Below, in pieces: positions 25,666 to 43,949 of a stretch of DNA of 58,032 bases. The notes under the pieces were generated by a model. The model had not been told where the DNA came from, did no database searches, and saw nothing but the letters and a program-made list of their open reading frames with translations. A program made the translations under genes and the position numbers. The first letter of the stretch is position 1. Every line of letters begins with the position of its first letter. Source of the DNA: a virus (Duplodnaviria > Caudoviricetes); IMG/VR virus record IMGVR_UViG_3300045253_000042, positions 1-58,032 of that record; one strand, given 5' to 3'.

Positions 25666-27141
25666 CTAGGCGATGTTGGTGAGCACACCCATGGCGACGG
25701 GTGCCCGGTTGATGAACGCCTCGAAGGACCGGATCTCGAAGTCCTTGCGGGGGCCACCACCGAGGGTGTCCGCGACACGCGAGGTGCCGTAGTCGAACTG
25801 GGTGACGTCACGCAGGGTCCGGCACTCCAGCACGCTGGAGATGTTGGCCTGCGGGAACGGCACCCGGTCGGTGCGGGCGATGATCGTGCCCGGCGGCAGC
25901 GACGTGTGGACCTCAATCGGGACGGTGATGCCGCCCGCCGGGGTGTTCACGACGTGCCCGACGCGGCCACCTGCGACCGTGTCGACACGGCCGGCCTCAT
26001 CGGTGTTCAGGTACGTCACCGCTGAGGGCTGCGCCAGGATCAGGTCCGCGATCTCCTGCGCCTGCGCCGCGTTCATCATGAGCGCGGTCGGGGAGCACTT
26101 GACCTTGTTCCAGATCGCCAGGAACAGCGCCTTGATCTGCGTGACGGACCCGCCGGACAGGGCTAGGGCCGCCGCGCCGCCGTCGGTGAAGACGGCCGGG
26201 TTGGCGGTCGCGGAGCCGGTCTGCACGAACTGCCCGGCCGTGTTGTAGTCGCCGGTCAGCGACGACAGGAAGCCGTTGAACTGCTGGCCCTGGCCCGATG
26301 CGACACCGGATCCGTTGTCCGCCGCCAGGTTCAGCGTCGGGATGACGGAGTACAGGTCCGGCAGTGCGGACAGCGGCTGGTTCGAGCCCGTCGCGGCCGT
26401 GATCGTCACCGAGGCGGTGGTCGTGGTCGCGTAGTAGAACGAGGTGCCGCCCGAGTTCGAGCTGATGAACCAGTCGTACGCGACCGCGCCCTTCACCGCG
26501 GCGATGGAGCAGGCGATCGAGCCGGTCGAGCCGGTCGTCGTCTGGTCGGTGGAGGCCTTGCCGCGGCTGTTCCCGCCGTAGTAGTAGCCCATGGCGGTGC
26601 GGGCCGCGACCGACACCCGGTACGTGGTGAGCGCCGCGAGGGTGCCACCGGTCGTCGACGGGGTCGCGGTGATCGTGCCGGGCTGGACCAGGTTGTAGCT
26701 CTGGCCGCCGATGAGGGCCCTGTCCTCGGCGATGAGGAAGTCGTTCAGGGTCTGCATCGTCTGCTCGGCGTACGGGTCGAACAGGCCCCGGGCCACGTCG
26801 AAGGCGTCCTGGGTGACCTGACCGGAGCGGGCCAGCGGCACGTACGGTGCCTGGAAGTCCTGCTCGGTGTTGATCATCGGCTTGCCTGCGTAGTCGTACC
26901 CGGCGAACGGGGTCGACTGGCTGGCGGTCGAGTCCATGAACGCGCGCCAGATCGCGAACGGCGAACCGTTCGGCGAGGACTTGCGCGCGACCTTGTCTCG
27001 GAACGGGGTGACCACCGGGATCAGTCGCACGATCCCGGTCAGGTCGTAGGAGTACGCGCCGGTCGACTCGAGCAGGCCCGTGGTCTGGGCCTTGGCGATC
27101 TCGGCGAGCGTCTCCTCGGTGACGTCCTGGAGGACAGTCAT
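25666..27141 (-). CDS. Major capsid protein with inserted FN3/Ig-like domain
   Basis: Position after protease/scaffold; YDL...LIPVVTPFR...EDRALIGG; insertion GGTLA..TYRVSVAA...VKGAVAYDWF; ends MGVLTNIA. Confidence 0.85.
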   Translation of the reverse strand: MTVLQDVTEETLAEIAKAQTTGLLESTGAYSYDLTGIVRLIPVVTPFRDKVARKSSPNGSPFAIWRAFMDSTASQSTPFAGYDYAGKPMINTEQDFQAPYVPLARSGQVTQDAFDVARGLFDPYAEQTMQTLNDFLIAEDRALIGGQSYNLVQPGTITATPSTTGGTLAALTTYRVSVAARTAMGYYYGGNSRGKASTDQTTTGSTGSIACSIAAVKGAVAYDWFISSNSGGTSFYYATTTTASVTITAATGSNQPLSALPDLYSVIPTLNLAADNGSGVASGQGQQFNGFLSSLTGDYNTAGQFVQTGSATANPAVFTDGGAAALALSGGSVTQIKALFLAIWNKVKCSPTALMMNAAQAQEIADLILAQPSAVTYLNTDEAGRVDTVAGGRVGHVVNTPAGGITVPIEVHTSLPPGTIIARTDRVPFPQANISSVLECRTLRDVTQFDYGTSRVADTLGGGPRKDFEIRSFEAFINRAPVAMGVLTNIA

Positions 27142-27205
27142 GGAGGTGGTGCCCCTTTCAGGCATGCGTCAGGGCCCGCGCTCGGCGGGGTGACGGAAGG
27201 TCGGG

Positions 27206-29143
27206 TCAGTTGCGGTGCGGCGGGCGGGTGGCGTGCAGCTGGCGCAGCGCCTCAGCGGCTGCGGTCTCCAGCTCCAGGGCCCTAGCCGCCCTCGTGGTGG
27301 CGTCAGGAGCGGACGTCCACTCCTCCTTCGCCACCGTCTCGTGCCGTAGCGCACCGACGTTCTGACCGCGCAGCACGTGGGGCTCCGGCATGGGCCGGTC
27401 CTCGTCGCCCCGCACGCGCTCTGCGCCTCTGGTCAGGACCTTGGACGGTGCTGGTGCCTCCAGGTCGGCGATCCGGTCCTCCAGCGCCTTCACGACCTCG
27501 GCGTGCTCGTCGTCTCGCGCCTTCAGGACAGCGGTCACCTGCTCCTCGATCATCTCCTTCAGCACCTCCTGAGCCGTCTTGGCGACCGGCTCCTCGGCGG
27601 AGGTGGAAGCTGTGGTGGCGGGCGGCGGCGCGGGCTCGGTGGCCGCGGTCGCGTCCGTGGGGGTGCCGACATCCTCCGGCTCGGCCGGGGTGTCGTCAGG
27701 GGCGTCGGCCGGGGCGTCCGCGTCGGCACCGGTGGTGCCCATCAGGACCCGCAGGCCGAGCTCGACCAGGGCCGCCTTCTGCTCCGAGCCGGACCCGGTC
27801 AGGGCCTGGCGCTTCAGGTCCGCATCGGACACCTTCGCCAGCGGGTCGTCCGCCCTGGCGACCTCGTCGGGCTCGGGCTCGGGCTCGTCGGCCTTCGCGA
27901 CGGCCGCTGCGACGGCCTCCGCGATCACCGCGGCCTCCTTGGACACGCCCACCGACGCGGACGAGCTGTGCCCGTCGTCGGCGGTGTCGGCCACGGGCTC
28001 GGTGGTGTCCGCGGTGGTCGGCTCGTCGCCTTCCTTCGCCACGTCGTCGACGGCCGGGGCGGCGGGCAGCGACGACAGGACCTGGGAGAGGGAGTCGACG
28101 GCGTCGCGGATCTTGCCCTCGTTCGCGGCGGACAGGACCCGGCCGGCCTTGGCGATCGGCACCAGCTGCTCCAGGACGTCCAGGGCGCCCGGGTCGATGC
28201 CCTCGGCGGCCTTGCCGACGGCCTGGATCTCCTCGGTGCCGGTCTGCGCCTCCAGCTCCTCATCGACGGCGTAGGCGGCCAGGACGCCGATGGCGTAGTC
28301 GAGGGCGCAGGCCGCATCGTTCAGGTCGAAGGAGTTGTCGATGCTGTCGGCGTCGCCGCCGGTGTCGGCCTCGACCATCTCCCGCTGCGCGAGGACCTCC
28401 AGCGCGTTCTTGGTTCGGCCCAGGACCCCGGTCCACTTGCGGGCCGTGGCGGCGTCGACGGACTCCCAGGCGGGTGAGCCGGGCACGTTCTCGTCCCCGA
28501 CGATCCCGTCGGCGGTGCCCTCCGCGAGCGGGGTGGCCAGGTCGACCTCGCCCGGGTCCTCGCTGACCTCGTCGTCGGCCTTCGCCACGTTGGTCGCGCC
28601 GGCGTCAGCCGAGCCGGTGTTGTCGGCGGCCTGCGCGGTGGGCTGGTCTGCGTCGTGGTCAGACAGGGAGCCGACCTGCTCGCTGGCGCCGCCCTCGCTC
28701 GCCTCCGCGCCGTCCGAGGTCGACTCGGCGACTGCGTCCTTGGCGACCTGCTCCACCGTGTCGGTGTCGGGCATATCGGTCTCCTCCTGGGCCTTGGCGA
28801 CGTCGATGCCGAACTTCTTGGCAGCCGCCTTGATCTTGGGCATGGCCTTGTCACCGAACGGGGACTGCGGTGCGCGCGACAGCGCGTTGCGGGTGTGCGC
28901 CTCGTCGTAGATCGCGAAGTGCCGCAGCGACAGCGGCGTGGTCTTGCCGTTGGCCTTCTTGCCGCCCGGCTCGACGTACGCGAAGTCGGAGTCGGGGCGC
29001 TCATCCATCGACGCCGTCGAGGCTTCGGCCTTGGCGATCAGGACCCGGTGCCCGTTCGCGGACTTGCCGACCAGGTCGACGCGCGGCAGGTCGGCGTCGA
29101 CGAGCTCGGTGAAGTCGTCGACCGGGATCGTCGTGTCGCTCAT
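27206..29143 (-). CDS. Capsid scaffold / maturation protein with DUF6582-like domain
   Basis: RVDLVGKSANG, PDSDFAY...RHFAIYDEAHTRNALSR...KIKAAAKKFGIDV, KAGRVLSAANE motif; acidic, low complexity. Confidence 0.7.
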   Translation of the reverse strand: MSDTTIPVDDFTELVDADLPRVDLVGKSANGHRVLIAKAEASTASMDERPDSDFAYVEPGGKKANGKTTPLSLRHFAIYDEAHTRNALSRAPQSPFGDKAMPKIKAAAKKFGIDVAKAQEETDMPDTDTVEQVAKDAVAESTSDGAEASEGGASEQVGSLSDHDADQPTAQAADNTGSADAGATNVAKADDEVSEDPGEVDLATPLAEGTADGIVGDENVPGSPAWESVDAATARKWTGVLGRTKNALEVLAQREMVEADTGGDADSIDNSFDLNDAACALDYAIGVLAAYAVDEELEAQTGTEEIQAVGKAAEGIDPGALDVLEQLVPIAKAGRVLSAANEGKIRDAVDSLSQVLSSLPAAPAVDDVAKEGDEPTTADTTEPVADTADDGHSSSASVGVSKEAAVIAEAVAAAVAKADEPEPEPDEVARADDPLAKVSDADLKRQALTGSGSEQKAALVELGLRVLMGTTGADADAPADAPDDTPAEPEDVGTPTDATAATEPAPPPATTASTSAEEPVAKTAQEVLKEMIEEQVTAVLKARDDEHAEVVKALEDRIADLEAPAPSKVLTRGAERVRGDEDRPMPEPHVLRGQNVGALRHETVAKEEWTSAPDATTRAARALELETAAAEALRQLHATRPPHRN

Positions 29144-29664
29144 GTGGTGCTCCTGACCGTGCGCCGCTTGGCCGCGCCCTGCGTGGAGACGCCGGTGACG
29201 CGACCGGTCTTGTACAGGCCCCAGGCGTAGTCATCGCACTGCAGGCCGACCAGCCACGTCCCGGACTTGATGACCACGTCCTCGCCGCCGGTGTTCGTCA
29301 GCGCCCAGTCCGGGCCCCGGTACACGTACGACTCGACGACGACCGCGTGCTCGTCCTCGAGCCCGGGGTTGAAGTAGGAGGCGTGCGCGACCCCGGCGAC
29401 GCCACCGCGGTGCTTGGCGATCAGCCGCCACGCGGCCTGCTCGACCTCGGCCTCGTTCATGAAGTCGCGGGCCCCGTCGACGCCCTTCGCGATCCGGTCC
29501 TGCTTGCCGGGCTCCCACGCGACGCACAGCAGGTAGCGCTGCTCGGCGGTCTCCTTCACGACCTCGACGGGCAGCGGCTCCGGCTCGAGCGCGGACTTGG
29601 CGACCGGCTCGTCGCCGACGAGCTCGTAGTGCCCGGTGGCCGGGTCACGGCGCAGATGGGTCAC
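29140..29664 (-). CDS. XkdF-like capsid maturation serine protease
   Basis: D..RDFM...EVEQAAW...H...VVESY...IKSGTWLVG...W...K.G.VTGVSTQG. Confidence 0.82.
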   Translation of the reverse strand: MTHLRRDPATGHYELVGDEPVAKSALEPEPLPVEVVKETAEQRYLLCVAWEPGKQDRIAKGVDGARDFMNEAEVEQAAWRLIAKHRGGVAGVAHASYFNPGLEDEHAVVVESYVYRGPDWALTNTGGEDVVIKSGTWLVGLQCDDYAWGLYKTGRVTGVSTQGAAKRRTVRSTT

Positions 29665-29666
29665 GA

Positions 29667-32600
29667 TCAGTCCCCTTCACCGAACTCGACGGGCAGGTCC
29701 GACACGCTCGCGCCCGCGGCGTCGATCAGCACCGGGGAGGACGCGCAACGGCAGTACGGGTGGACGGGCACCAGCGACCCTTCGGAGACGGGCCACGGGT
29801 TGTTCTCCTCCAGAGACGTGCACTCCTGGCAGGCACCGTCAGCGGTCAGGACGTCGAAGGCCTCGATGCCGTTGGAGGCGTAGGTGTCCAGGGTGGCCGC
29901 GTCGACGGCGCGGGCCGTCTCGGTCTGCGCAATCATCTCGGCGCGGCTCAGGTCCCCGACGATGCCGTCCAGGTAGCCAGCGATGGTGTCGACGCTGTCC
30001 CCGGCGGCCAGGCCGTCCGCGACGGCGTTCCCGATCCGCTCCAGCGTGGTGGCGTCGATCCCGTCGATGCTGATCCCGGCACCGTCGAGCAGGTCCGCGA
30101 GGCCACCGTCAGCCGCGGCGAGCGAGGCTGACGGGTCGCCGGGCTCCCACGTCGACCAGTCGATCCCGGCCGCGACGTCACCCACGGCGGAGGCCACGTA
30201 CCCGCCGGACTGGCGGGCTGCGGTGCCCAGGCCGGCGGTGTAGGCGTCGGCGATGAGCTGGCGCATGACCCGCTCGAGCTCGGCCGTCGATGCCGCGCCG
30301 GCAGCCGACTGGGCGGCTGCGGTGATCTGGGCGCGGGCCGCCGCGGCCGCGTCATCCTTCGCCACGGACCCGGCGGCCCGGGCCGGGGCTCCCTCCGCCT
30401 TGGCGGCTGCCCCGGCTGCTGCCGCGCTGTGCAGCTGGGAGGGGCTAAACGTGGCCCGTAGAGCGGCCTGCAGGAGTGGGGCGTAGTGATCGGTCAGGCG
30501 CAGGTCGTAGGCGTGCTGTGGGGCGTTGTCCGCGTCACGCCATGACGCTTTTGGGTCGGCCTTCACCACCTGCGCCGTCCCGGTCAGCGCCGCCAGGACG
30601 ACGGGCAGGTCCTGGGCCAGCTCGGAGCGCACCGCCGGGTTGCCCTCCAGGCTGGCCGGGTCCCACCAGGCGGCGACCTCGGCGCAGTCCCCGTCCGGGT
30701 CGTCCGGGTTCAGCACCCGGCCGGTCTGGTTGTTGACCGGCAGCACCGACTCGTCGGGGACGACGATGACGAAGCCCTGGTAGACCCCGTTCGCCGAGGT
30801 CCACGTCTGGCCGTTCTCGAAGGCGTGCGGCGTGGCCAGGTCCAGATAGGGGGCCAGGGAGCAGCCGGTCTCCTCCTGCCACTCCCGCCATGCGGCAGCG
30901 AGCGGGGTCTCGCCGTCCTCGATGCACCCGCCGGGGAACTCCCACGTCCCCGACGCCGGATCGGCCGGGTCGAGGGCGCGCTGCAACATGAGCACCCTCC
31001 CGGTGTCCGCCGCGACGACCGCCAGTCCGGCCGCGACCATCTGGCCGGCCGCTTTGCGCACCTCGGCCCGGCCTGCCTGGTTGAGCCGGTGCGCGAGACG
31101 CGGCTCGAACGCGGCGAACGTGAAGTCGCGCCAGTCACGGGACTTGCGGCGCTGCTTGACGAAGCGGCGGAACGTGGCCAGCTCGCCCTTGACGACCTCG
31201 AGCAGCTCGTCGTCCTCGTCGTCGTCGGCCAGCATGGGGGAGCCGTAGGCGCCGGTCTGCTCAGTGATCCCGACCGTGGCCTCCTTCGCCACCGGCGGCG
31301 GTGGCGGTGGCGCTGCGGGCGGCAGCTCGGGGACTGGCGGCCCGTATCGCTGCACGGCGAGCGGCTCGGTCGGCGGCGGCGGGTTCGGCATGACACCCTC
31401 GACCGGGGTGAACGGGGCGTGCGGCAGCGGTGCGTCAGCGACGGGGGCGGCGGACTCAGCGTCGATGGGGCCGGCGACGGCCTTGAGCGCGGACAGCGGG
31501 ATGGGGCCGCCGCGGGTGGTGAAGATGAACCGCGGCACCGGGATGCCGTCCGGCTCGGACAGGCCGTACACCCGCTGACGGGCCTCGGACGCGGAGATGA
31601 CCCCCGCCTTGATGTACAGGTCGTCGGCCTGCGCGGTGTTGAGCCGGTCCTCCTTCTCCTGCCCGGTGTCGAACGCGAACTCCAGGTCCAGGCCCAGGTC
31701 GTCCTGCAGGAACCGGGTGAAGATGCCCTCGGCGTGCTGGATCAGCGGCAGGTCCCCGATGCGGAACTGCACGTCGGACTGGGTCTCGGAGGTGGCCCGG
31801 TTGACGGTCTCGGTGAACCCCAGGTCCGAGGGCACCACGTGGTAGCTGGCCGCGGTCTTGCGCATGAGGAACAGGGAGAAGGCGTCGGTGAACTCCTTCT
31901 CGTTCGTCCACGCGAACGTGGTGCCGTTCGGCACCCACTTGACCTGGTGCTTGGCCGTGTCGTCGCCGTACAGCAGCGCGTCCCACGCGGTCTGGAAGTC
32001 CTCGATCTGGGTCGGGTCCCAGCCGTCGGGCGCGGACGCGAACGCCTCCGGCACGTTGCCGGTGGTGAAGCGCTGCAGGAAGTACGACTGGAACCGCAGG
32101 TCGGTGTTGGCGTTCAGCAGCACCGACTCGATGGGCGCCTTCCCGTACGGGGTGCCCGACGTGGGCTGGTACGGGACGTAGATCAGGTCGTCGGTGGTCA
32201 ACCAGTCCCACGGGATGCCCTGCGCGAACTGCACGAACGCCGGCGCGGGCGGCTCCGGGGTGCCCCCGTAGTAGTCCAGCAGCGGCGCGATCGTCGTCCC
32301 GTCGACGACCTTCAGGCCGATGGCCTGGCCGGCGTTGTTGCGCATCCGGTACAAGGTCCCGGCGTCGAACGCGAGGATGTCGTACAGGTAGGAGGCGAGC
32401 CACGCCGGGAACGGGGTGAGCCGGTCGGGCCGGTCCAGGATCCGCTTCCCGTACGCGATCTGCGCCTCCACGTCGAGCCCGGACGCGCCGGGCTTGGCGA
32501 CCAGCGACCAGGCCAGGGACCGCACCGAGTTGATGCGGTGCCAGATGCAGATCTGCGCGATGTCGTACGCCTCGATCAGGCCGCGCAGGGTGTCGAAGCT

Positions 32601-32807
32601 GACGCGCTCGTCGCGGCGGGGCCGGGCCGCGATGTTGTAGCCGGACATGTAGTCCTGCTCGCGCGGCGGCACCGAGTAGCCGGCGTAGGGCGCGAGCGGC
32701 GCACCGGGGCCGAACGTCCGGCCGACCATGCCCTGGCGGGCGGCGGCCTGCTCCATCGGCACCGGCCGGCCCCACTGGTCCACGACGAGCAGGGAGGTCT
32801 CGCTCAT
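29667..32807 (-). CDS. Portal protein fused to NUDIX hydrolase and MuF-like minor head domain
   Basis: Portal motifs (YGKAPIE, F..GNVP, VVPSDLGFTETVNRATS); Nudix box GCIEDGETPLAAAWREWQEETG; MuF motifs RAEMIAQTETARA, CQEC, PVHPYCRC. Confidence 0.9.
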   Translation of the reverse strand: MSETSLLVVDQWGRPVPMEQAAARQGMVGRTFGPGAPLAPYAGYSVPPREQDYMSGYNIAARPRRDERVSFDTLRGLIEAYDIAQICIWHRINSVRSLAWSLVAKPGASGLDVEAQIAYGKRILDRPDRLTPFPAWLASYLYDILAFDAGTLYRMRNNAGQAIGLKVVDGTTIAPLLDYYGGTPEPPAPAFVQFAQGIPWDWLTTDDLIYVPYQPTSGTPYGKAPIESVLLNANTDLRFQSYFLQRFTTGNVPEAFASAPDGWDPTQIEDFQTAWDALLYGDDTAKHQVKWVPNGTTFAWTNEKEFTDAFSLFLMRKTAASYHVVPSDLGFTETVNRATSETQSDVQFRIGDLPLIQHAEGIFTRFLQDDLGLDLEFAFDTGQEKEDRLNTAQADDLYIKAGVISASEARQRVYGLSEPDGIPVPRFIFTTRGGPIPLSALKAVAGPIDAESAAPVADAPLPHAPFTPVEGVMPNPPPPTEPLAVQRYGPPVPELPPAAPPPPPPVAKEATVGITEQTGAYGSPMLADDDEDDELLEVVKGELATFRRFVKQRRKSRDWRDFTFAAFEPRLAHRLNQAGRAEVRKAAGQMVAAGLAVVAADTGRVLMLQRALDPADPASGTWEFPGGCIEDGETPLAAAWREWQEETGCSLAPYLDLATPHAFENGQTWTSANGVYQGFVIVVPDESVLPVNNQTGRVLNPDDPDGDCAEVAAWWDPASLEGNPAVRSELAQDLPVVLAALTGTAQVVKADPKASWRDADNAPQHAYDLRLTDHYAPLLQAALRATFSPSQLHSAAAAGAAAKAEGAPARAAGSVAKDDAAAAARAQITAAAQSAAGAASTAELERVMRQLIADAYTAGLGTAARQSGGYVASAVGDVAAGIDWSTWEPGDPSASLAAADGGLADLLDGAGISIDGIDATTLERIGNAVADGLAAGDSVDTIAGYLDGIVGDLSRAEMIAQTETARAVDAATLDTYASNGIEAFDVLTADGACQECTSLEENNPWPVSEGSLVPVHPYCRCASSPVLIDAAGASVSDLPVEFGEGD

Positions 32808-32823
32808 GCGACCCGCCTCCAGC

Positions 32824-34458
32824 TCATCGTTGTGGTTGCTTGCGGTGGGCCCGGAACGCGGCCTGCCGGGCGGCCTCCAGCGGAGCCAGCTCGACGACCT
32901 CAGCGGCGGCGGCCTGCTCCTCGGCGGCCTTCTCGGCTGCGATCGTCTCGGCGCGGCGCTTCATGAACTCGATCCACTGCGCAGCCCCGGCGCCGCCAAG
33001 CAGCAGCCGGTCCAGGCCCTGGGACAGCGCGTCGACCTGGTCGTCGTTGCTGCCGTTCGGGAACGCTGCGGCCTCGTCGATGATCTCGGCCCCCCACCCC
33101 GGGTCGATGTCGGCGTGCGGCAGCAAGACGTTCCCGGCCTCGATGAAGTGGGACACGGCGCTGGCCCGGGCGTACTTGGAGCCGTGCGGCTCGACCGGCA
33201 CGATGCCGGGGATCTTGGTGCGCAGCGTGTCGATGACGGCGCTGCCGTTGGCCTTGTCCTCGACGAGCTTCGCGGCGGCGCCGGGCCACTTGGCGACCTG
33301 GTGCTGGAACGCCTTGATGGTCTCGGTGAACGTCATCCGGCGGCGCACCTGGTCGAGCACGTAGACGTCCGCCCCGATGCGGGCCAGGACCTGCCCGACG
33401 ACGAAGTCGGAGCCGCGCTTGTCCTTGAACGTCATGTCCCACGACAGGACCATGTCGTCGCACACCATCCGGTGGGTGCCGTCCGCGTCGACGGTCCACG
33501 GGATCGCGGCGTAGCGGCGCCACCACTGCCGCTTCCACACGTCGCCGGACTCCGGTGCGGGCCGTCCCTGGAACAGGGCCTGCCACTGGCGCGGCGGGGT
33601 GGCGACCTTTGTGGCCCGCCACTGGGACCCGGTGCGCTGACGGGCGGAGTCCATGAACTCCCCGGGCTGACGGCCCAGCGGGTCGACCTGGCCCTTCGCC
33701 GGGTCGTGGTCGGCCTGCGCGGGGATGTTGATGACCGTCCACCGGTCGAAATCGAGCTCGCCCGCGGCCTCGTCCTGCGCCTGCTTGGCGAGCAGCCGAC
33801 CGGCCAGGTCGAGCTCAGACCAGCGGGTCAGGATCAGCACCACGGGCGCACCCGGGCCCAGACGCGGCCGACCGACCGACGTCCACCACGCCCACGCGGC
33901 CTCGGACTGGTTCTCCGAATCGGCGGCCTTGTAGTCCTTGACCGGGTCGTCGATGAACAGCACGTCGACGGGCCGCCCGGTCAGGGCGCCCCCGATGCCG
34001 ATGGCGTAGCAGCCGCCACGGTGCGGCGGGTCCAATACCCAGCGGGACGCGGCCTTGGAGTCGCGGCGCAGCCGCAGACCCAGGTCGACGTTCCCGTCGG
34101 TGCCGTCGAACGTCAGAATGTCGTTGCGGATCTTGGAGGAGAACCCCGACGCGATGTTGCCGTCGAAGGAGACGATGCCGATGCGCAGGTTCGGGTCCCG
34201 CGCCAGCATCCACAGCGCCCCGTAGTGCGTGGTCCGCTCGGACTTCCCCTCCTGCGGCGGCATCGAGATGATCAGCCGGTCGGTGCGGCCCTCCGCCACG
34301 TCGACCAGGGCCGCGTCGACGATGTCGAGGGCGCCGGTCTGGCGGGTCGTCGGATCCAGGTCCCTCGCCAGCGCCCCGGGTGTCGACCAGTCGGGGCGGT
34401 CCAGGACCGGGTTGGAGAACGCCCGGGCGACCAGGTCCAGCACCGTGTCGACGGACAT
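32824..34458 (-). CDS. terL: Terminase large subunit
   Basis: Walker A MPPQEGKS, Walker B FIDDPVKD, TRW..DLAG, LSWD nuclease, LVEDKANG, NDDQVDALSQ. Confidence 0.95.
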   Translation of the reverse strand: MSVDTVLDLVARAFSNPVLDRPDWSTPGALARDLDPTTRQTGALDIVDAALVDVAEGRTDRLIISMPPQEGKSERTTHYGALWMLARDPNLRIGIVSFDGNIASGFSSKIRNDILTFDGTDGNVDLGLRLRRDSKAASRWVLDPPHRGGCYAIGIGGALTGRPVDVLFIDDPVKDYKAADSENQSEAAWAWWTSVGRPRLGPGAPVVLILTRWSELDLAGRLLAKQAQDEAAGELDFDRWTVINIPAQADHDPAKGQVDPLGRQPGEFMDSARQRTGSQWRATKVATPPRQWQALFQGRPAPESGDVWKRQWWRRYAAIPWTVDADGTHRMVCDDMVLSWDMTFKDKRGSDFVVGQVLARIGADVYVLDQVRRRMTFTETIKAFQHQVAKWPGAAAKLVEDKANGSAVIDTLRTKIPGIVPVEPHGSKYARASAVSHFIEAGNVLLPHADIDPGWGAEIIDEAAAFPNGSNDDQVDALSQGLDRLLLGGAGAAQWIEFMKRRAETIAAEKAAEEQAAAAEVVELAPLEAARQAAFRAHRKQPQR

Positions 34459-34461
34459 CGG

Positions 34462-37400
34462 CTACGTGAACTGGACGGTGACGGGGCCCTTGACGACCTG
34501 GGTGGCGTCGCCGATCTTCAGGTACAGCCACATGATCGTGTTCGGGTCGGGCTGGAAGTCGGAGTTCGGGCCGCACTGGCACATCGCCCAGTGGTCGCCC
34601 TCGGTGTCGGTGTACCAGGTGGCCGGCAGGTTGATCTCCGCCTGCGTCGGTCGGATCGCGCCGCGCTCGGTGATCTGGAAGTTCACGATGTCGCCGGTCG
34701 GGTCCAGCCCGAACCTGGACGTGACCAGCACCGGCACCGGCTCATCGGAGACCGCCAGCTGGGAGTGCATGCGCCCTCCCTTGGTCAGCGACACCGTCCA
34801 CACCGGGCCGCCGGCGCGTGCGGTGAACAGGGCGTGGTCGTCCAGGACCCGGATCGCGAAGTCGCCCGGGTGGAAGACGGCGTGCTTGATCTGGTCGAGG
34901 AACGCGGCCAGGACCGTGGCGGCCCGCTGCACGGCCCGGACCGCGTGCCGCAGACCCTGGCTCGGCCCCTGCAGGAGCACGTCGTCGACGAGCTGGGTGT
35001 AGCCGGCCGGGCTGTTCGGGGCGACGACCAGCAGCCACGCCTTCACGGCCTGCGCCGGGGCCAGGTTGACCGCGTTCCCGGCGAAGGTGTGGGACTGGCC
35101 GGCCGGGATGCTGACGGTGCCGATCAGGCTGGAGGTCAGGTAGGTGTTGTCGGCACGGAAGAACTCCACGTACACGCTGACGAACTGCGCGGCGACGGAG
35201 GTGTTCGTGACCGTGGCCCGCGCGGACCACCGGTCCCCCGGTGTCGCGGGCGGGGCGGAGGCCAGCTTCGGCCAGGAGATCCGCAGCCCGTCGCCGGCGC
35301 CGGACGCCGTCCCGAGGAACGAGGTGGCCCCGTCGATCGGACTGGTGGTGGTGACCACGTAGGTGCCGTTGGTGAACGACGCCTCGGCCAGGTTCTCGGC
35401 CCGGTACGTGGACGGCGCGAGCAGGTTGTACGCCGGGGCGACGTAGGCGTTCAGCTGGGCCACGACCGCGGCGGTGCGCCGCAGCAGCACGGTCTGTCCG
35501 ATGCGGAACGTCTGCCCGACGACCGTCGTCCACACCCCGGCCGTGGTGGTCGAGGTGGTCCGCCTGGCGGTGACCGCCTGGATGCTGCGGGCGGTCAGGG
35601 CTGCGACGGCCCGGACGTTGATCGAGCTCGCCGTCTGGTTCAGCAGGTTCCGCACTGGGGCCTCGACGTAGCGCAGGGTCGCCGTGAGAGCGGCCATGGA
35701 GATGCGCAGCACCGGGCCTTGGGTGGCGCGGCTGGTGACGCCCAGGGCGTTCTTGACGGTGCGCCCGACCGTGGTGGTGGCCTTGAGGGCCACACCCGGG
35801 CCGTTGGACACCGTCCGTCCGACGGTGGTGGCGATCGACCGGGTGGCGGCCACGGAGGCCTTCAGTGCCCGACCTGGGGCGGTGGCGACCAGCTGGCGGG
35901 CGGCCACAGCTGCGGACGTCTTCGCCAGCCCCGCCTCGAGCAGCGCCCAGGTCCGGGACACGGCCTGCGCCAGGGTGCGGCCTGGGGCCTGGACGGCGGT
36001 GCGGGTGGCGGCGACCGCGGAGGCCACGGGCCGGCCGGTCATGACCACGATCGACGCCCGCGCCGTGGCGACCGCGTGGTTCAGGCGGGCGCCGTCGGTC
36101 ACTGGGGCGGCCACCGTCTGGAAGATCAGAATCGCGGACCGGACCCGGGCCAGCACGTTGAGGCCGTGCGCGGACCGGAACGCCACCGTGACCTGCGACC
36201 CGGCACGGGCCGGCGACAGAGTCCACGTCGGTGCGGTCGGCGAGCCCACGGCCGGGCCGATCAGGTAGGCGGTGGACTGCCCGCCGGCCACGTTCGCATC
36301 CGACGTGAGCTGGGTATAGCCGCCCGACAGGGTGCAGGTCGTACCGGACGGGGTGCCGTACGTGATCGCCGACACGACCAGGTCGTCGGGCTGGGCCGGC
36401 GTGACGTTCTCCGCGGCCGGGGTCGTGGTCGACAGGTACTGGTGCGCGGCGTGCTGGTCAGGCTGGGTCGTGATGTCGCCGGAGTACTCGGACAGGACGA
36501 CGGTGGTGGCGAACGCTGCCCCGTTGACGGTCACCCGCTGGGCGGCCAGGGGTAGCGCGTCGGGGCAGTACCAGATCTCGATGTCCCGGCTGTTCGCCGC
36601 GTTCCCGTCGCCGCGCACGTAGCTGTTGCCGGCGCCGTCGGTGACCGACGTGATGGCGACGTTGGTGTTGACCGCGACAGAGACGACGAGCAGGTTCCCG
36701 GCGGTGGTGGTCAGCGGCGCGGACTGGGCGGCGCCGCTCGAGCCGGTCCAGTGGGCCTGCTGCACGAGCGCGAACCCGGGGCCGCTCAGCAAGGTCAGCA
36801 CGTGGGCGACGGCGTTGCGCAGCGCCCGCGCGGGCGCCTGCACGATGGCGAGGGCCGCGGTGGCCGCGTGCTTGACGGTCCGGGCCGGGGCCTGGGTCAC
36901 GGTCCGGGTCGCGGCCACGGCCTGCGCCAAGGTGCGGGCTGGGGCCTGGGTGACGAGCAGCGTCTGGAACCGGGACTGGAGGTTCGAGACGGTCGCGGCG
37001 AGCGTCTGCGTGGCCTTGCGGGCCGCAGCCACAGCGGCGCCGAGGGCGCGGGCCGGGGACGTCACGACCAGGACCGTCCCAGCGGCAGCAGCCTTCAGTG
37101 CCCTGGCCGGGGTCTGCGTGACGGCGCGGGTCGCGACCACCGCCTGGGCCTTGATCGACTTGGCCGGGTTCTGCACGACCGGTCCGCGCAGCCCGGTGAT
37201 CGCGGCGAGCAGCGCCCGACCCGGTGCCTGCAGCAGCGCCGCCAGGGCAGCGGTCACGGACTCCACAGCAACCGGCGCCGTCGTCGTGGCCGCCCGGACC
37301 GTGTTCACGATCGCCGCCAGGGATGCCGGCGGGCCGACCCAGTCCAGGGTCGAGTAGCCCCAGTAGGGGACGAGCAGGTGCGTGGTCAGCCCGGGGGCGG

Positions 37401-38028
37401 TGATGTAGCCGATGTTCACCGTGTCGACGAACCCGCCGAGGGTGTACGTCTGCGGGCCGGACTGCTCGAGCAGGACGTTGTTCTGGTCCCACAGCCGCAT
37501 GTACATCTTCTGCGCGACCGCGTCGACCGCGATCTCCGCCGTGTAGATCACCCCAGCGACCAGGGTGGTGGTGCTCGTGTAGCGGGTGGTCGTCTTGTCC
37601 CGCAGCACCAGCTTGTTCGTCGTGGTCGTGACCAGGCCGCACTGCACGATGCCGAGGCCGCGCAGGTTGAGGATCGTCGAGTTGTTGGCGGTCGGCCAGT
37701 CCTGGAGCATGAAGGTGCACACCGCGAACGCCGCGGCGATCCCGTCCTGGGGGATGCCGGCCATGGTGGCGAACCGGTTCGCGGTGCCCGTCGAGACGTC
37801 GACCCGCGAACCCATCGCGGACCCGGTGACGACCAGGCTCGCGTCGTACACCCAGGTCGCCCCGAGAGTGAGCGCGCCGCCGTCGGAGATGCCGGAGGTC
37901 TGCAGGTAGTTGCTGCCGGCCTGCCCGTTACCTTCGGAGAAGTTGTCGACCTCCCGGACGGCGATGCGCAGGCCGGAGCGACCAAGCGGAACGCCGGGGG
38001 CTACTAGCGCAGGAGGGAACTCGGGCAC
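34462..38028 (-). CDS. Large fibre-like virion protein (lectin-like head, ~19-aa QxPxRxL repeats, CBM-like domain)
   Basis: 1188 aa, repeats VTQAPARTL / LQAPGRAL / VTQTPARAL; TTAGNLLVV...VTDGAGN domain. Confidence 0.7.
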   Translation of the reverse strand: MPEFPPALVAPGVPLGRSGLRIAVREVDNFSEGNGQAGSNYLQTSGISDGGALTLGATWVYDASLVVTGSAMGSRVDVSTGTANRFATMAGIPQDGIAAAFAVCTFMLQDWPTANNSTILNLRGLGIVQCGLVTTTTNKLVLRDKTTTRYTSTTTLVAGVIYTAEIAVDAVAQKMYMRLWDQNNVLLEQSGPQTYTLGGFVDTVNIGYITAPGLTTHLLVPYWGYSTLDWVGPPASLAAIVNTVRAATTTAPVAVESVTAALAALLQAPGRALLAAITGLRGPVVQNPAKSIKAQAVVATRAVTQTPARALKAAAAGTVLVVTSPARALGAAVAAARKATQTLAATVSNLQSRFQTLLVTQAPARTLAQAVAATRTVTQAPARTVKHAATAALAIVQAPARALRNAVAHVLTLLSGPGFALVQQAHWTGSSGAAQSAPLTTTAGNLLVVSVAVNTNVAITSVTDGAGNSYVRGDGNAANSRDIEIWYCPDALPLAAQRVTVNGAAFATTVVLSEYSGDITTQPDQHAAHQYLSTTTPAAENVTPAQPDDLVVSAITYGTPSGTTCTLSGGYTQLTSDANVAGGQSTAYLIGPAVGSPTAPTWTLSPARAGSQVTVAFRSAHGLNVLARVRSAILIFQTVAAPVTDGARLNHAVATARASIVVMTGRPVASAVAATRTAVQAPGRTLAQAVSRTWALLEAGLAKTSAAVAARQLVATAPGRALKASVAATRSIATTVGRTVSNGPGVALKATTTVGRTVKNALGVTSRATQGPVLRISMAALTATLRYVEAPVRNLLNQTASSINVRAVAALTARSIQAVTARRTTSTTTAGVWTTVVGQTFRIGQTVLLRRTAAVVAQLNAYVAPAYNLLAPSTYRAENLAEASFTNGTYVVTTTSPIDGATSFLGTASGAGDGLRISWPKLASAPPATPGDRWSARATVTNTSVAAQFVSVYVEFFRADNTYLTSSLIGTVSIPAGQSHTFAGNAVNLAPAQAVKAWLLVVAPNSPAGYTQLVDDVLLQGPSQGLRHAVRAVQRAATVLAAFLDQIKHAVFHPGDFAIRVLDDHALFTARAGGPVWTVSLTKGGRMHSQLAVSDEPVPVLVTSRFGLDPTGDIVNFQITERGAIRPTQAEINLPATWYTDTEGDHWAMCQCGPNSDFQPDPNTIMWLYLKIGDATQVVKGPVTVQFT

Positions 38029-38029
38029 A

Positions 38030-38584
38030 TCAGTGTCCCCATCTGATCCACTGCGCCTGGATCAGGTTCGTCGCCGATGACGTACCGCAGGTCACCGACA
38101 GCGCGAACCCCTGCGCGGTGGTCTGGTCGGCGGTGGTGATCAGCGTGCCGCCCATCGGGATGGCCTGTCCGGCCAGGATCGCGGTGGTCGGCCAGACGAT
38201 GAAGCCGCTGCCGTTGATCTTCGCGAGCGACGCGGCCACGTTCAGTGAGGTGACCTGGAAGTCGAACTCGCCGAACCACGGGCTCGAGGCCGGGATGGTG
38301 CCACCGGACGGAACGACCGCCGAAGCGCCGAAGGAGATGTTCGACGACGGGGTGGCGGACTGCCCGAAGCGGGGCGTGAAGGTCCAGTTGATGCCGGTCG
38401 CGGACTGGCAGATCCCGCCGAACTTGCAGGTGTAGACCGCGCCCTCGACGAGCTCGTCGCCGGGGATAGACGACCAGATCGCCGGGTTCCACAGGTTCGC
38501 CTCGGCGGTGAACGTGTTCAGCGACGCAGGGGGGGTGGGGAACCCGTTCTTGTACGCCTGATAGATCGGCCTCGGGAAGGGCAC
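38030..38584 (-). CDS. Beta-rich structural protein
   Basis: 184 aa, AGGAG RBS, between the two large fibre genes. Confidence 0.65.
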   Translation of the reverse strand: MPFPRPIYQAYKNGFPTPPASLNTFTAEANLWNPAIWSSIPGDELVEGAVYTCKFGGICQSATGINWTFTPRFGQSATPSSNISFGASAVVPSGGTIPASSPWFGEFDFQVTSLNVAASLAKINGSGFIVWPTTAILAGQAIPMGGTLITTADQTTAQGFALSVTCGTSSATNLIQAQWIRWGH

Positions 38585-38593
38585 GGCGTCTCC

Positions 38594-41500
38594 TCAGGCT
38601 CGGATGTCGAACACGTCTGGGACCTGGTTGCCGGGCGACTCGGCGCTGTTCACGGCGCCCACGCCGCGGGTCGGTGCGGCCAGCAGCCGATGCCGGACTG
38701 CCTGCACGACGCGGCCTAGTGCCGTCGCAGCCGATGCCGGAAACAGGGCCCGAACTGCGGCCTGCACCCGCCTGACCGGGGCCACGGTCACCTTCGGGCT
38801 GGTGGTGACGGCCGGGTTGTTCTCGCGCCCCACCGTGGCAGCAGTGGCCCGTCCAGCCGCAGCCGTAGCCGCCTGGTGGACGGGGCGGCCGGTCATGGTC
38901 TGGGCGGCCCGCACCGTGGCGGACAGGGCGGACTGGCCCAGGTGTCCGAACGTGTACGCGCTGGCCGCCAGGGTCTGCAGCAGATTCTGGACCTGGCTGA
39001 CCGCGGACGCCGCCGGGGTTTGCGTGACCTGCAGAACGCTCGGCACGACCGCCTGCGCCTTGATCGACTCGACGGGGTTCTGGACGATCCGCGACGACCA
39101 GCCGACGCCCGTCGCGGACAGGCGCTTGCTGGGGGCCTGCGTGATCGTCCCCAGCGCGACGACGGCGGCGTTGGTGAGCTTGCGGATCGGGGCCTGCACC
39201 ACGGTCACGGACTGCAGCCGGGCAGTGGACTGGGCCAGCAGCTTCGTCGTCGTCTCCACCGCGCGCGCCGTCGCTGTCAGCGCCCGCTGCCCCTGCACGG
39301 CGAGCGGGGCCTGGATGGCGGTGTGGCGCCTGCCGACGGCGTGGGCGAGCTTGCGGGCCGGCGCCTCGATCGCCGCCACGACGTTGACCTGCCCGGCGCC
39401 CTGGTTCTGCACCGACCGAGCCACGGTGGTCGCGATCCTGCGAGTCCACGCCACCGCCTGGCTCGAGGCGGCGACCAACACCGGGTGGACGGGCAGCACC
39501 GAGGTGACACGGGCGCCGAGGGTCTTGGTGGAGGCGATCGAGATGGACGCCAGATCGACGTAGAACTTCTGCCCCGCGACCGAGGTGTCGGTGGCGAACA
39601 GTGCGACGGTGTGCAGCGTCGACGTGGCGACGAACGAGAAGTTCAGCTGCTCCCACACGTTGTGCCGCGAGCTCGGGTTGGAGAACAGGAACAGGCCGTC
39701 GGTGAAGAACTGCACCGGCGGCAGCCCGGTCGGCATGTACACCCATATCGAGATGTTCATGACGTTGCCGGGGGTGGCCGGGAAGTCCAGCAGCGTCTCG
39801 GAGACCAGGAACGAGGAGCCGGTCACCGACGCGAGGGTGACCTGCATCGACCGGAAGCCGTCCTTGGCCTGGTCGGTGGTGTTCGCCAGGACCGGCAGCG
39901 GCACCCCGGCCGTGTACCAGGCGCCGACGGAGCCGTCCTCGAACGACTGCGACGCGGCCGACAGGAACGGCGCCGAGCTGGGCTGCTGCACCCGCAGCCT
40001 GGCGAGCATCGCGTTCTTCTTCGCGATCGCCACCGTGCTCACACCGGTCGACAGCTGCTGGAAGAACGACGCCCCGCCGGACGGCTGCGGCGGTGGGGTC
40101 CGCCAGTAGGCGGCGGACTGCGGCATCAGCCACACGACCGCGTTCGCGGCGTGGGGGAAGGCGAGGGCGGGGACGTGCAGGGTGGCGGGCCCGGACGCTG
40201 TCTGCGTGGTCCCGGATGTTAGGCCAACCGTCTCGGGGTGCGCGCCGTGCGGGTCGATGGTGATGACGGCGCCGTTGGCGATCGAGTGGTCCGTCGGCTG
40301 CGGGGGGCTCGAGACCTTCCCCGGGATGTCGTTGACGACGATCGACGTCGCCCCGGCCAGGGTGGCGCCGGCCAGGTTCGTGTCGAGCAGGTTGTGGTTG
40401 TGGTCGAACCAGGCGATCGACAGCGCCGGGTTCCCGAGGCTGTTGTTCGCGGCGACCCCGGCCTGCATGTGCGGCAGATGCCCGCCCGCCCCGGTGTCGG
40501 GGGGGTTCGCGGCGACGCTGGTGCCGAACTCCTCGACCGTCCACGGCTTACCCAGGTGCGCCGCGTACGCCGCGGTGTTGGCCCAGATGGACAGGTTCGC
40601 GTACGGGTCGGAGCCGACGTAGTCGACGTTCGGGGTGGTGGAGATCCACGTGTCGCAGAACGCTGTCGTGTTGTTGAAGAACAGGCCGGTCATGATCGGC
40701 CCGAACGCGATCGGGTGCGCCCGGTTCGCGTTGACCATCGGCTTGAGCTTCGTCATGAGGACGATCAGCTCGGCCTTGTGCTGCGCCGCCGTGTAGCTGA
40801 CCCCGTTGTTGTCGGGCTCGTGGACGAGGCAGCCCTTCATCTGGTCGAGGTCCTGCACCGCCCCGAAGTAGTTCGCGAGGAACGCGAGCGCGTTGTTCTG
40901 CGCGACCGCACCGTTGTCGCCGCGCAGGTCCGCGCGGCCCCACACCTGGTTCCCGCCGGTGTACGTGCCGGCGCCGTCGACCATGGTGCTGCTCGCCGAG
41001 TACGTGATCGGGGTGCCGGCCGCGACCGCGGCGACGTCCGACGGGGTGTAGCAGCGGACCCGCTTCGCCGGCGGCGTCGGCGTCAGCTCCGGGTACCCGG
41101 GCTGCGACGTGCCGTACGTGACTGCGGCGGTCGGCAACGTCGTGATCACCGTGGTGTGCGTGCCGTCGTTCCCGAACACGATCGGCCCGGTCAGGTGCTT
41201 GCCGCTGGCGTCGACGATCTCCGACAGGGTGATCGTGCCGAGGCGCGGGTACGACCCGGTCGCACCTGAGCCGGGCGCGTCCTGGAACGACGTCACCGCG
41301 AGGCGCGCACCGGAGGCGAGGGTGACCTGGTCGTTGTACGCCGACAGGACACCCTCGGCCTGGTACGCCTCGGTGAAGCCGCCCGACAGCGGGATGGTGC
41401 CGTTGTTGACGAAGATCACGTTGTTGATTGACCGGACACCGTTCCACGGGCCGCGGCCGTCGCCCATCACGTGCCCAGAGATGGCCCGGCCACCGTCGGA

Positions 41501-42301: not shown

Positions 42302-42366
42302 GGCGCCTCCCGGTCAGGACGTGGCGACCGGGCCGCCCTTCCCCTCGACGGCCCGGTCGCGTCCGT

Positions 42367-42861
42367 CTACTCGTCCCGGCCGTAGGCCTGGTCGCGGGCC
42401 CGACGCAGCACCCGGATGAGCCTGTTGATGCCTTCGCGGTCCAACGTCGCGAACAGGCCACGCCCGAGGTCGGACGCCTTCACCAACGGGTCGACCAGCA
42501 GCGACGCTTCCTCCGGGATGTCGGCGTCGGTACGCGCCGCCCCGGTCGGTTCTGCCCCGCCGTCGTAGCCGCGACCGAACACGACCGCGTACCACAGGTC
42601 ACGCCACGCGGTCCGCACCCATAGGGCCTCGAAGCCGTCGAACGCCCACGAGCTGACCACCATGCCGGGCACGATCCGTTCCCGCCACGGGATGCTGGGC
42701 CGGCGCCACATGTCGACCAGGTCGCCGAGGTCGGCCGGGTCGTCCGGTGTCTGCGGGTCCCGCATCAGCGTGGCCAGCTGCACGTGCCCGCTCGGCTGTG
42801 GCGACCACTGCAGTTCAGCATCGAACACGCCGACGCTGTCGTAGATCCTCTCCTTGGGCAT
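42367..42861 (-). CDS. Conserved actinophage hypothetical protein
   Basis: MPKERI...HVQLAT...LDREGINRLIRVLRRARDQAYGRDE; GGAGG RBS. Confidence 0.75.
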   Translation of the reverse strand: MPKERIYDSVGVFDAELQWSPQPSGHVQLATLMRDPQTPDDPADLGDLVDMWRRPSIPWRERIVPGMVVSSWAFDGFEALWVRTAWRDLWYAVVFGRGYDGGAEPTGAARTDADIPEEASLLVDPLVKASDLGRGLFATLDREGINRLIRVLRRARDQAYGRDE

Positions 42862-42917
42862 CACGCCCACCTCCATCACGGAGGAGCCGCCCTGCGAATG
42901 GGGCGGACGTACGTGAA

Positions 42918-42941
42918 GGCCCGACCCCGAAGGGCCGGGCC
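42918..42941 (-). terminator. Hairpin with cUUCGg tetraloop
   Basis: GGCCCGGCCC-TTCG-GGGTCGGGCC-TTC on minus strand, after stop of 42948..43589. Confidence 0.7.
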
Positions 42942-42947
42942 AACGTC

Positions 42948-43589: not shown

Positions 43590-43661
43590 GACGGTTTCCC
43601 CTTGCTCGGTCGGACAGGACGGGGCGGTGCGGCACGCCGGCAAGGGGTCCGGCGTGGTGGT

Positions 43662-43946
43662 TCAGCGCTTGCGGGCGGTGGCCTTCTTCGCCGCGGCTGG
43701 CTTGCTCGAGCGCTTCGCTGCGGCCTTGCTGAGGGCGATGGCCTGCAGGTTCAGGAGCGCTTCGCCGAGCGACTTCCACGCCTCGGCTGCCTGCTCGAGC
43801 GCTTCTCGCGAGGCGCGCACCTGGGCGATGACCTCGGCGGTGCCGCGCGGGGACTGCTCATCCGACGGCTTCGGGGTGGCCGCGTCGATCAGGCCCGCGA
43901 CGTCGGCAGTCAGGCGCTGCAGGGTGGGGGCGAGGTCAGCGAGCAT
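43662..43946 (-). CDS. Hypothetical protein with Lys/Ala-rich tail
   Basis: KAAAKRSSKPAAAKKATARKR; GGAGG RBS. Confidence 0.65.
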   Translation of the reverse strand: MLADLAPTLQRLTADVAGLIDAATPKPSDEQSPRGTAEVIAQVRASREALEQAAEAWKSLGEALLNLQAIALSKAAAKRSSKPAAAKKATARKR

Positions 43947-43949
43947 GGC

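Follow-up and report, generated by a model that had tools for sequence, protein, structure and literature searches.

The DNA analysed here, called the window, is a complete virus record of IMG/VR (IMGVR_UViG_3300045253_000042) of 58,032 bases, with about 71% G+C and an estimated completeness of 70%. It comes from a phage of high-GC soil bacteria, and its coding lies almost entirely on the minus strand. Its head module includes an open reading frame (ORF) for a protein of 1046 amino acids (aa), P0001, in which a portal, a NUDIX hydrolase and a MuF head morphogenesis domain are joined in a single polypeptide. This fusion is real and conserved, which can be regarded as practically certain. Comparison of related proteins indicates that its NUDIX domain is an accessory payload in a defined slot, frequently gained, lost or swapped. 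It is tentatively proposed that this enzyme, facing the capsid interior on the portal, would be freed by the head maturation protease, delivered with the DNA and engaged in the hydrolysis of an ADP-linked dinucleotide. The gene is organized as follows.

29667 to 32807, minus strand: portal-NUDIX-MuF fusion gene, 1046 aa (P0001); one ORF without internal stop, with Pfam and PHROG domains and a ribosome-binding site
31488 to 32720, minus strand: portal core, residues 30-440 (PF04860, phrog_2662, mean pairwise identity 0.68)
31230 to 31292, minus strand: linker motif, residues 506-526 (VAK-E...GITxxTG...), resembling the capsid N-terminal motif, with K508 as a candidate maturation site
31053 to 31196, minus strand: two-helix segment, residues 538-585, with VRK (K585) at its end; helices predicted at about 90 in the local distance difference test (pLDDT)
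31050 to 31061, minus strand: VRKA, residues 583-586
30573 to 31052, minus strand: NUDIX hydrolase cassette, residues 586-745 (PF00293, structure model, fold match, conservation)
30861 to 30929, minus strand: Nudix box, residues 627-649, reading GCIEDGETPLAAAWREWQEETGC, with all catalytic residues present
30558 to 30569, minus strand: VVKA, residues 747-750
30549 to 30569, minus strand: VVKADPK, residues 747-753, with two conserved Lys within a disordered linker; a candidate for the maturation cut that also marks the natural gene-fission boundary
30390 to 30548, minus strand: post-NUDIX helices, residues 754-806 (SWRD...PQHxYDLxLTDHYAP), seen in structure models and kept in NUDIX-less relatives
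29718 to 30167, minus strand: MuF (head morphogenesis) domain, residues 881-1030 (sub-cut-off PF04233, PHROG families)

The reading frame starts with an ATG at 32807, preceded 8 nt upstream by the ribosome-binding site GGAGG. Pfam Phage_portal (PF04860) matches residues 87-412 (E 2.7e-15, 56.8 bits, above the cut-off of 39.1), and Pfam NUDIX (PF00293) residues 591-720 (E 1.1e-15, 58.3 bits, above the cut-off of 21.1). Pfam Phage_Mu_F (PF04233) is found on residues 924-1022 with E 6.5e-6 and 27.3 bits, slightly below its cut-off of 29.6, which is passed by gp3 of the Arthrobacter phage Sonali and by other relatives. The PHROGs families agree, with a portal match on residues 47-421 (phrog_2662, E 1.1e-58), a MutT/NUDIX match (phrog_1198, E 5.5e-17) and head morphogenesis or minor head protein matches at about 1e-13 (phrog_4728 and phrog_115); several head morphogenesis families match residues 904-1033 at 1e-13 to 1e-9. 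At the C-terminal end, a Cys/His cluster typical of MuF (CxxC ... HPxCRC) has C993, C996, H1016 and C1021 invariant and C1019 nearly so in 35 sequences. The earlier note, made from the DNA alone, had described this single ORF with its three domains, an intact Nudix box and the VRKA and VVKA motifs on the two sides of NUDIX; all of these are found, and the domain coordinates it gave are off by no more than some tens of bases.

A mis-assembly or a sequencing frameshift merging separate portal, NUDIX and MuF genes, the kind of error that the earlier note had named as fatal to its reading, would be in line with the metagenomic origin and estimated completeness of the window and with the split forms present in certain contigs. 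This explanation is hardly credible, because the same single ORF stands in two sequenced isolates and in 45 of 64 tallied records (the window and 63 IMG/VR loci, assigned with custom domain hidden Markov models (HMMs)). Indeed, the Arthrobacter phages Mufasa8 (gp3, QGJ93453.1, 1000 aa) and Sonali (gp3, QAY16116.1, 995 aa), whose genomes are finished, carry the same three Pfam domains in one protein, the layout recurs as a single ORF in Streptomyces and Kitasatospora genome records, and the G+C content at third codon positions (GC3) is uniform at 0.95 along the entire P0001 ORF. Portal-NUDIX and MuF are separate adjacent ORFs in 5 of the 64 tallied records.

A search over 5.8 billion proteins, with 8000 candidates scored, gave 513 protein matches at E<=1e-3; among the 120 matches listed, PF00293 is present in 120, PF04860 in 119 and PF04233 in 74. 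Relatives are frequent in genome records of Streptomyces, Kitasatospora and Streptacidiphilus, which indicates prophages. In IMG/VR, 387 of 410 candidate stretches encode a relative, and an ORF filter (GC3 >=0.8, at least 60 aa, plus strand) recovered the portal-fusion ORF in 63 of 80 loci. A megablast of window positions 26000-38000 against the phage collection gave zero matches, and thus no close cultured relative is present there.

The NUDIX domain is an insertion upstream of MuF, between two conserved helical segments, and not a MuF extension. The earlier note had stated that enzymatic extensions of MuF proteins are usually C-terminal; this does not describe the NUDIX of P0001, and it does apply to some relatives in which an ADP-ribosyltransferase (ART) follows MuF. 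A model of residues 535-800 built with 43 sequences (pLDDT 84.5) displays a Nudix fold with two helices before it and two after. The full-length monomer model reached a pLDDT of 63 and a predicted template modelling score (pTM) of 0.36, too uncertain for the packing of the domains, which was disregarded; only its low-confidence segments were used.

The cassette very probably forms an active enzyme. In an alignment of 35 full-length relatives, no variation is seen at G627, E633, R641, E642, E645 and E646 of the Nudix box, nor in the acidic loop NPDDPDGD (residues 700-707). All 120 relatives among the matches listed display the catalytic core Gx5Ex7RExxEE, and 100 of them keep the last Gly of the 23-residue Nudix signature. 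Mean pairwise identity is 0.68 for the portal core, 0.63 for NUDIX, 0.43 for MuF and 0.30-0.42 for the linkers, and the Nudix catalytic core is constrained as strongly as the portal core. The same clade also comprises 57 short NUDIX-only proteins detected at E<=1e-5, many of them from short contigs.

The fold was compared with structures in the Protein Data Bank (PDB). The ranking by Foldseek is non-discriminating, consisting of generic Nudix matches. VIA-align of its highest-ranked matches gave Z of at least 8 for 656 of 997 aligned chains, and those listed are Nudix enzymes. RenU of Mycobacterium smegmatis (6uuf_B) comes first only at this stage, with Z 15.2, a root-mean-square deviation of 2.5 Å over 129 residues and 22% identity, and leads the next match by 1.5 Z units. 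It is followed by Dcp2 (Z 13.7), the ADP-ribose (ADPR) pyrophosphatase NadM (13.6), BdRppH (12.9) and an Ap4A hydrolase (12.7), and E. coli RppH is found at 11.7. The structure prediction that the earlier note had suggested as a check thus returned a Nudix fold. A PDB sequence search gave generic Nudix matches and did not detect RenU at E<=0.01. Subfamily assignment with NCBIfam failed, as the 19 matches, including MutT and RNA pyrophosphohydrolase models, all cover the box region only and lie far under their cut-offs.

An ADP-linked substrate is the best guess from the modelled fold. RenU prefers ADP-ribose, FAD and NADH and, according to PMC4401782, does not hydrolyze NAD+. T4 NudE has FAD, ApnA, ADPR and NADH as substrates according to the note of its record, which is the set of RenU; a single BLASTP comparison aligns it weakly with the NUDIX of P0001, at 33% over 73 aa in the region of the Nudix box (E 1e-4). 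Nudix enzymes acting on RNA must also be considered. The same delivery could bring in an RNA 5'-end pyrophosphohydrolase or decapping enzyme (RppH/Dcp2/NudC-like) that would destabilize host transcripts or remove NAD caps, leaving free nucleotide signals aside. Dcp2, BdRppH and E. coli RppH are indeed among the close fold matches, weak NCBIfam matches point to RNA pyrophosphohydrolases, and the 2H phosphoesterase that occupies the NUDIX slot in some relatives belongs to a family acting on RNA ends according to PMC5512222. Such a role is nevertheless improbable: the top fold match RenU, a hydrolase of ADPR, FAD and NADH, is more than 1 Z unit ahead, the RppH sequence models all match far under their cut-offs, and the NAD-using ART borne by the same polypeptide in some relatives fits an NAD-ADPR network.

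The earlier note had called for a survey of the domains exchanged at the NUDIX position, and such a survey reveals NUDIX, 2H phosphoesterase or nothing among close portal relatives. The portal core alone (residues 1-450) retrieved 3314 representatives at E<=1e-3 from a 50%-clustered library, and NUDIX is present in 69 of the best 150. A 2H phosphoesterase (LigT/2'-5' RNA ligase superfamily) lies between portal and MuF in L083, P0200, P0222, P0233, P0226, P0135 and P0182, P0057 carries NUDIX and a weak 2H match in tandem, and P0148, P0155 and P0160 have 230-260 aa without a Pfam match in the slot region. In 9 NUDIX-less relatives inspected closely, the two-helix segment meets the post-NUDIX helices almost directly, with a short Lys-containing linker between them. 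A clear case is the pair P0153 (with NUDIX) and P0159 (without), which share 79% identity over 534 N-terminal and 68% over 352 C-terminal residues and differ by a clean NUDIX indel of about 155 aa.

A FastTree phylogeny was built from 121 portal cores, namely the 150 representatives and the window protein minus 30 whose portal hits were split or incomplete; a further 19 rows, short or unlabelled, stayed in the tree without entering the change count. On this tree, the slot content of the 102 labelled rows requires 36 changes versus 35.9 in shuffles, so that no clustering of slot content on the portal tree is detected, an absence that is partly built in because the library keeps one whole-length representative per 50%-identity cluster and so separates architecture variants. 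As this biases the shuffle result, weight is put on the P0153/P0159 pair and on NUDIX alone, for which well-supported branches of the portal tree force at least 25 gains or losses. Since close portals carry NUDIX, 2H or nothing, the domain is an optional payload and not a part of the assembly machinery.

Further domains are appended to the same carriers. An ART exoenzyme domain (PF03496) follows MuF in L075 (500-4591), P0197 and P0126, and L075 combines portal, NUDIX, MuF and ART in a single polypeptide. The presence of 2H in the NUDIX slot and of ART after MuF fits a conflict or payload role. In the natural split forms, NUDIX stays with the portal, and 5 portal-NUDIX ORFs stop 10-25 aa past the K749/K753 motif. 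The same NUDIX clade (45-51% identity) is also mounted on other head carriers, either a protease or MuF plus a protease. Thus, gp52 of the Streptomyces phage Gilgamesh is a protease-NUDIX protein encoded directly upstream of the capsid gene, and gp13 of the cyanophage Pam4 is a MuF-NUDIX-protease protein.

Several side observations concern these relatives. In Gilgamesh (L086, 1-5101; record 31978-45852), gene 48 is a single 13.9-kb gene annotated as 'hypothetical protein', a few genes upstream of the protease-NUDIX and capsid genes. Many Streptomyces-type homologues (P0018, P0050, P0051, P0056, P0065, P0074, P0083, P0096, P0120 and L082 5874-7016) have NUDIX and the Lys motif separated by an insertion of about 35 aa, CPCG...DGWxH..DGSxGHxDGESVS, which looks like a small metal-binding module from its sequence; its position corresponds to residue ~746 of the window protein (nt ~30570), which is devoid of it. 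Inteins (Intein_splicing, LAGLIDADG_3) occur within or after the portal-fusion gene of P0045, P0109, P0053, L042, P0198 and P0226, some of them following MuF, and the portal cores found by HMM in two or three pieces are probably interrupted by inteins.

A role outside conflict, as a housekeeping MutT-like sanitizer of the nucleotide pool or a catalytically irrelevant spacer on the portal, would account for the source label '8-oxo-dGTP pyrophosphatase MutT' of many relatives, for the weak MutT model matches and for a cassette that is dispensable and absent from close relatives. It is very improbable. The source names are generic automatic labels, and the catalytic core, intact in every match listed, is conserved to the same degree as the portal core. 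Moreover, the cassette swaps with another nucleotide phosphoesterase, co-occurs with ARTs and undergoes the rapid gain and loss typical of accessory conflict genes.

The fusion is surrounded by the following genes.

32824 to 34458, minus strand: large terminase subunit, immediately upstream of the portal fusion (phrog_38, E 1.7e-87; Pfam Terminase_6C)
29140 to 29664, minus strand: XkdF-type head maturation protease, P0123 (Pfam Peptidase_S78_2, E 3e-12, 47.1 bits versus a cut-off of 24; phrog_3017)
27206 to 29143, minus strand: acidic scaffold-like protein of 645 aa rich in Ala, Asp and Glu, P0122, between the protease and capsid genes
25666 to 27165, minus strand: major capsid protein, P0121 (phrog_13692, E 1.7e-42), with the N-terminal motif EETLAEIAK followed by AQTTGLLESTGAYSYDL

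The start codon of the protease gene lies 2 nt past the stop of P0001. P0122 has no family match in Pfam, PHROGs or NCBIfam; its position between the protease and capsid genes is conserved (35 related ORFs), and it is presumably a scaffold digested at maturation. The capsid assignment agrees with the major capsid protein annotation of its relatives Mufasa8 gp6 and Sonali gp7. This order of terminase, portal fusion, protease, scaffold-like and capsid genes recurs in related contigs, and homologues among the ORFs of 80 loci amount to 33 for the capsid, 35 for the scaffold-like protein and 38 for the protease.

P0001 contains only 20 Lys among its 1046 residues, and those associated with its linkers are conserved in 35 sequences: K508 (VAK-E) at 94%, K540 at 77%, K585 (VRK-A) at 100%, K749 (VVK-A) at 91% and K753 at 97%. 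A Lys motif, [VILAP][VA]K[ADEGST], was defined post hoc, after inspection of P0001. Within the window, it accounts for 20 of the 68 Lys of four head-module proteins versus 21 of the 268 Lys of the 47 other called proteins (Fisher p ~1e-5), and P0122 harbours 10 motifs versus 2.0 expected by composition. Across the 80 related loci, the motif per Lys reaches 0.223 in the protease, 0.187 in the scaffold-like protein, 0.123 in the portal fusion and 0.097 in the capsid versus 0.041 in 593 other ORFs. Relative to composition-preserving shuffles, the observed/expected ratio is 6.8 for the protease, 3.5 for the portal, 3.1 for the scaffold-like protein, 2.6 for the capsid and 1.09 for the others, the z-scores of this enrichment being inflated by the relatedness of the loci.

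The earlier note had supposed that maturation frees the enzyme, with VRKA and VVKA as its flanking motifs. The two motifs fare differently. A maturation cut at VVKA/PK (K749/K753) is plausible because the site is conserved, lies in a segment of pLDDT <50 and carries a type of motif that is enriched in proteins of head maturation. VRKA is a less likely cut site because K585 terminates a confidently predicted helix leading into the first Nudix strand. The segments of pLDDT <50 in the full-length model include 489-533 (with K508), 745-753 (with K749 and K753) and 809-817 (with K817), and the upstream cut would more likely be at K508 than at K585.

The surroundings of K508 display a second feature shared with the capsid. 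All 34 capsid N-termini examined read ...EETLAAIxK-AQTTGILxxTGxYSYDL, and the Lys concerned is residue 25 of P0121. A 32-residue HMM of this N-terminus, built from the 34 sequences and run against 811 ORFs, matches 49 portal-fusion ORFs at E<0.01, in the linker directly behind K508; apart from capsids and portal fusions, no class among these ORFs falls under E 0.78. The copy of the window itself is weak (E 0.007, AKEATVGITEQTGAYG), and K508 stands out by its conservation within an otherwise variable linker. By sequence similarity, the portal tail thus bears a copy of the N-terminal signal of the capsid protein together with its Lys, which could be a protease recognition site or a docking site for scaffold or capsid shared by both proteins. 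In Mufasa8 and Sonali, the motif is on the capsid protein and absent from the portal.

A portal is a dodecameric ring at one vertex of the capsid, with its C-terminus facing the interior, and it is retained in the capsid at ejection. As the enzyme belongs to the interior-facing part of the protein, portal stoichiometry would load it into the head; this topology supports the loading put forward in the earlier note, and a head-internal location of the enzyme is judged highly likely. In the proposed sequence of events, twelve copies of the fusion would be built into each procapsid with NUDIX inward, and the adjacent XkdF-type protease would cut after hydrophobic-hydrophobic-Lys motifs, as the sequence patterns suggest. 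Cuts at K508 and K749/K753 would then free a fragment of about 26 kDa comprising the two helices and NUDIX. The freed enzyme may exit with the DNA into the new host, by analogy with T4 Alt and the T4 internal proteins and in line with the proposal of Iyer et al. (2022). In the infected cell, it would hydrolyze an ADP-linked dinucleotide, with ADP-ribose, NADH, FAD, ApnA or an ADPR-derived immune signal as candidates. Release by maturation cleavage, suggested by the conserved Lys motifs, falls a little short of an even call, and delivery into the host, which leans on the T4 analogy, is more doubtful.

Several points weigh against this sequence of events. Cleavage, packaging, ejection and activity are all deduced, and the portal itself remains in the capsid when the DNA leaves. 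Sequence and fold do not single out a substrate class, given the NCBIfam matches far under cut-offs, the Dcp2, NadM, RppH and Ap4A hydrolase structures that come behind RenU at Z 12.7-13.7 and the weak similarity to T4 NudE. Apart from its post hoc definition and the inflated z-scores, the Lys motif is not enriched in the head modules of Mufasa8 and Sonali, and it is therefore not general to the family. K585, at the end of its helix, may be structural, and a cut at K749/K753 alone would leave NUDIX on the portal. Finally, the pre- and post-NUDIX helices, contiguous in NUDIX-less relatives, could form one bundle, so that a nicked protein may stay assembled.

In another scenario, NUDIX is never released: it would act late in the producer cell, on free portal or open procapsids, for example by removing ADPR/NAD-derived or other nucleotide signals from defences that sense late structural proteins, and would end as inert cargo on the portal crown. 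The maintenance of the fusion in hundreds of lineages, split forms that keep NUDIX on the portal and not as a free gene, the position of K585 within a structured helix and the retention of the portal at ejection are in its favour. Furthermore, a 2026 preprint (10.64898/2026.01.27.700999) reports that the T7 portal gp8 binds RelA and SpoT in the cell and suppresses (p)ppGpp, a lead towards cytoplasmic action of portals on the nucleotide signalling of the host. On the other hand, a portal is made in small amounts and is ill suited to supplying the cytoplasm with an enzyme, the occurrence of the same NUDIX clade on three procapsid-internal carriers (portal, MuF and protease) argues for the head interior as destination, and conserved Lys motifs lie in the disordered linkers around the cassette. 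A tethered enzyme is thus rather unlikely, and release followed by delivery is preferred.

A broader view of the released enzyme, itself speculative and on the unlikely side, would make the portal tail a self-loading polyprotein, with an exchangeable payload slot between protease Lys sites, a capsid-like signal on the freed payload and delivery before phage expression. NUDIX, 2H or no cassette would be exchanged between near-identical portals, and the Lys sites flanking the slot would be those that the XkdF-type protease uses on scaffold and capsid. After a cut at K508, the N-terminus of the payload would copy the sequence that follows the conserved Lys of the capsid, so that one recognition or docking signal might be common to capsid subunits and cargo. 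The genome would then bring twelve enzyme molecules along into the cell ahead of any phage gene expression.

The published idea that nucleotide-degrading enzymes preloaded in the head blunt immunity based on NAD/ADPR or nucleotide signals at entry becomes testable with this family, as it offers Mufasa8 and Sonali in culture, near-isogenic pairs from nature that differ by the presence of the cassette, and specific predicted cleavage sites. The family also shows that a portal protein can carry covalently attached cargo and have a hot spot of payload exchange, which is of relevance for the annotation of large 'portal' genes and for the engineering of protein-delivering phages.

Elsewhere in the window, two very large ORFs with GC3 of 0.95-0.96 lie shortly upstream of the terminase gene on the minus strand, at 34462-38028 (1188 aa) and 38594-42301 (1235 aa). 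Neither has a Pfam or PHROG match. For the 1188-aa ORF, the protein atlas yielded no usable lead. The 1235-aa ORF drew only a weak one (0.79), towards phage proteins of the parallel beta-helix or pectate-lyase-like type, a hint of a tail spike or depolymerase. G+C falls to 0.657 at positions 50001-52000 versus about 0.70-0.73 over the remaining record.

The literature and phage annotations already hold both this architecture and the associated hypothesis, and the window protein thus belongs to a known kind. According to section 3.5.2 of Iyer et al. 2022 (Viruses 14:1977, PMC9503650), Nudix domains are fused to MuF, to Portal and to the capsid-processing serine peptidase, with packaging and injection deduced from these fusions. 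The idea of a packaged and injected Nudix is therefore not new, and the interpretation given in the earlier note is essentially this published hypothesis. Fusions of 2H phosphoesterase and other domains to MuF or portal received the same interpretation in the work on polyvalent proteins (Iyer et al. 2017, PMC5512222), which also presents T4 Alt and internal proteins as a model for an enzyme packaged in the head and delivered with the DNA. Portal-MuF fusions, reported in Microbacterium phages together with MuF-VIP2 toxin fusions (PMC7302621), are standard annotations of actinobacteriophages and not new either. A literature search returned no experimental test of a portal-fused Nudix and no proteomic or infection data for the family. 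To this published picture, the present analysis adds the behaviour of the slot, a candidate motif for cleavage and the capsid-like signal.

Compared with the head-fused Nudix proteins of Iyer et al. (2022), all three carrier types of that section (portal, MuF and protease) are found here, whereas its T4 NudE-like clade contrasts with the weak NudE alignment obtained for P0001. The resemblance to MuF-effector and polyvalent proteins, as presented in PMC5512222, lies in a head-internal carrier with swappable enzymatic effectors, here ART after MuF and 2H phosphoesterase. In classical MuF-effector fusions the effector is C-terminal to MuF, whereas the NUDIX of P0001 stands upstream and stays with the portal in split genes. 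RenU, the best structural match, whose bacterial source shares its phylum with the likely hosts, differs as a cellular, free-standing enzyme of redox homeostasis, and a shared fold does not fix the substrate. T4 NudE also differs, as a free protein of 151 aa without structural fusion, encoded beside lysozyme and internal-protein genes. T4 Alt and the internal proteins are packaged, cut by the prohead protease and injected, and T4 cargo relies on a capsid-targeting peptide and not on covalent attachment to the portal. The gp3 proteins of Mufasa8 and Sonali, annotated as 'portal protein', 'MutT/NUDIX hydrolase' or 'portal and MuF-like fusion protein', are only 38-43% identical to P0001. Their phages lack the two-helix segment, the capsid-like motif of the portal linker and the Lys-motif enrichment, which makes the latter two features clade-specific. 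Nevertheless, they share with the window a single protein of about 1000 aa in which portal, NUDIX and MuF follow in this order, the succession of terminase, portal fusion, small protease, scaffold-like and capsid genes, and the same capsid N-terminal motif.

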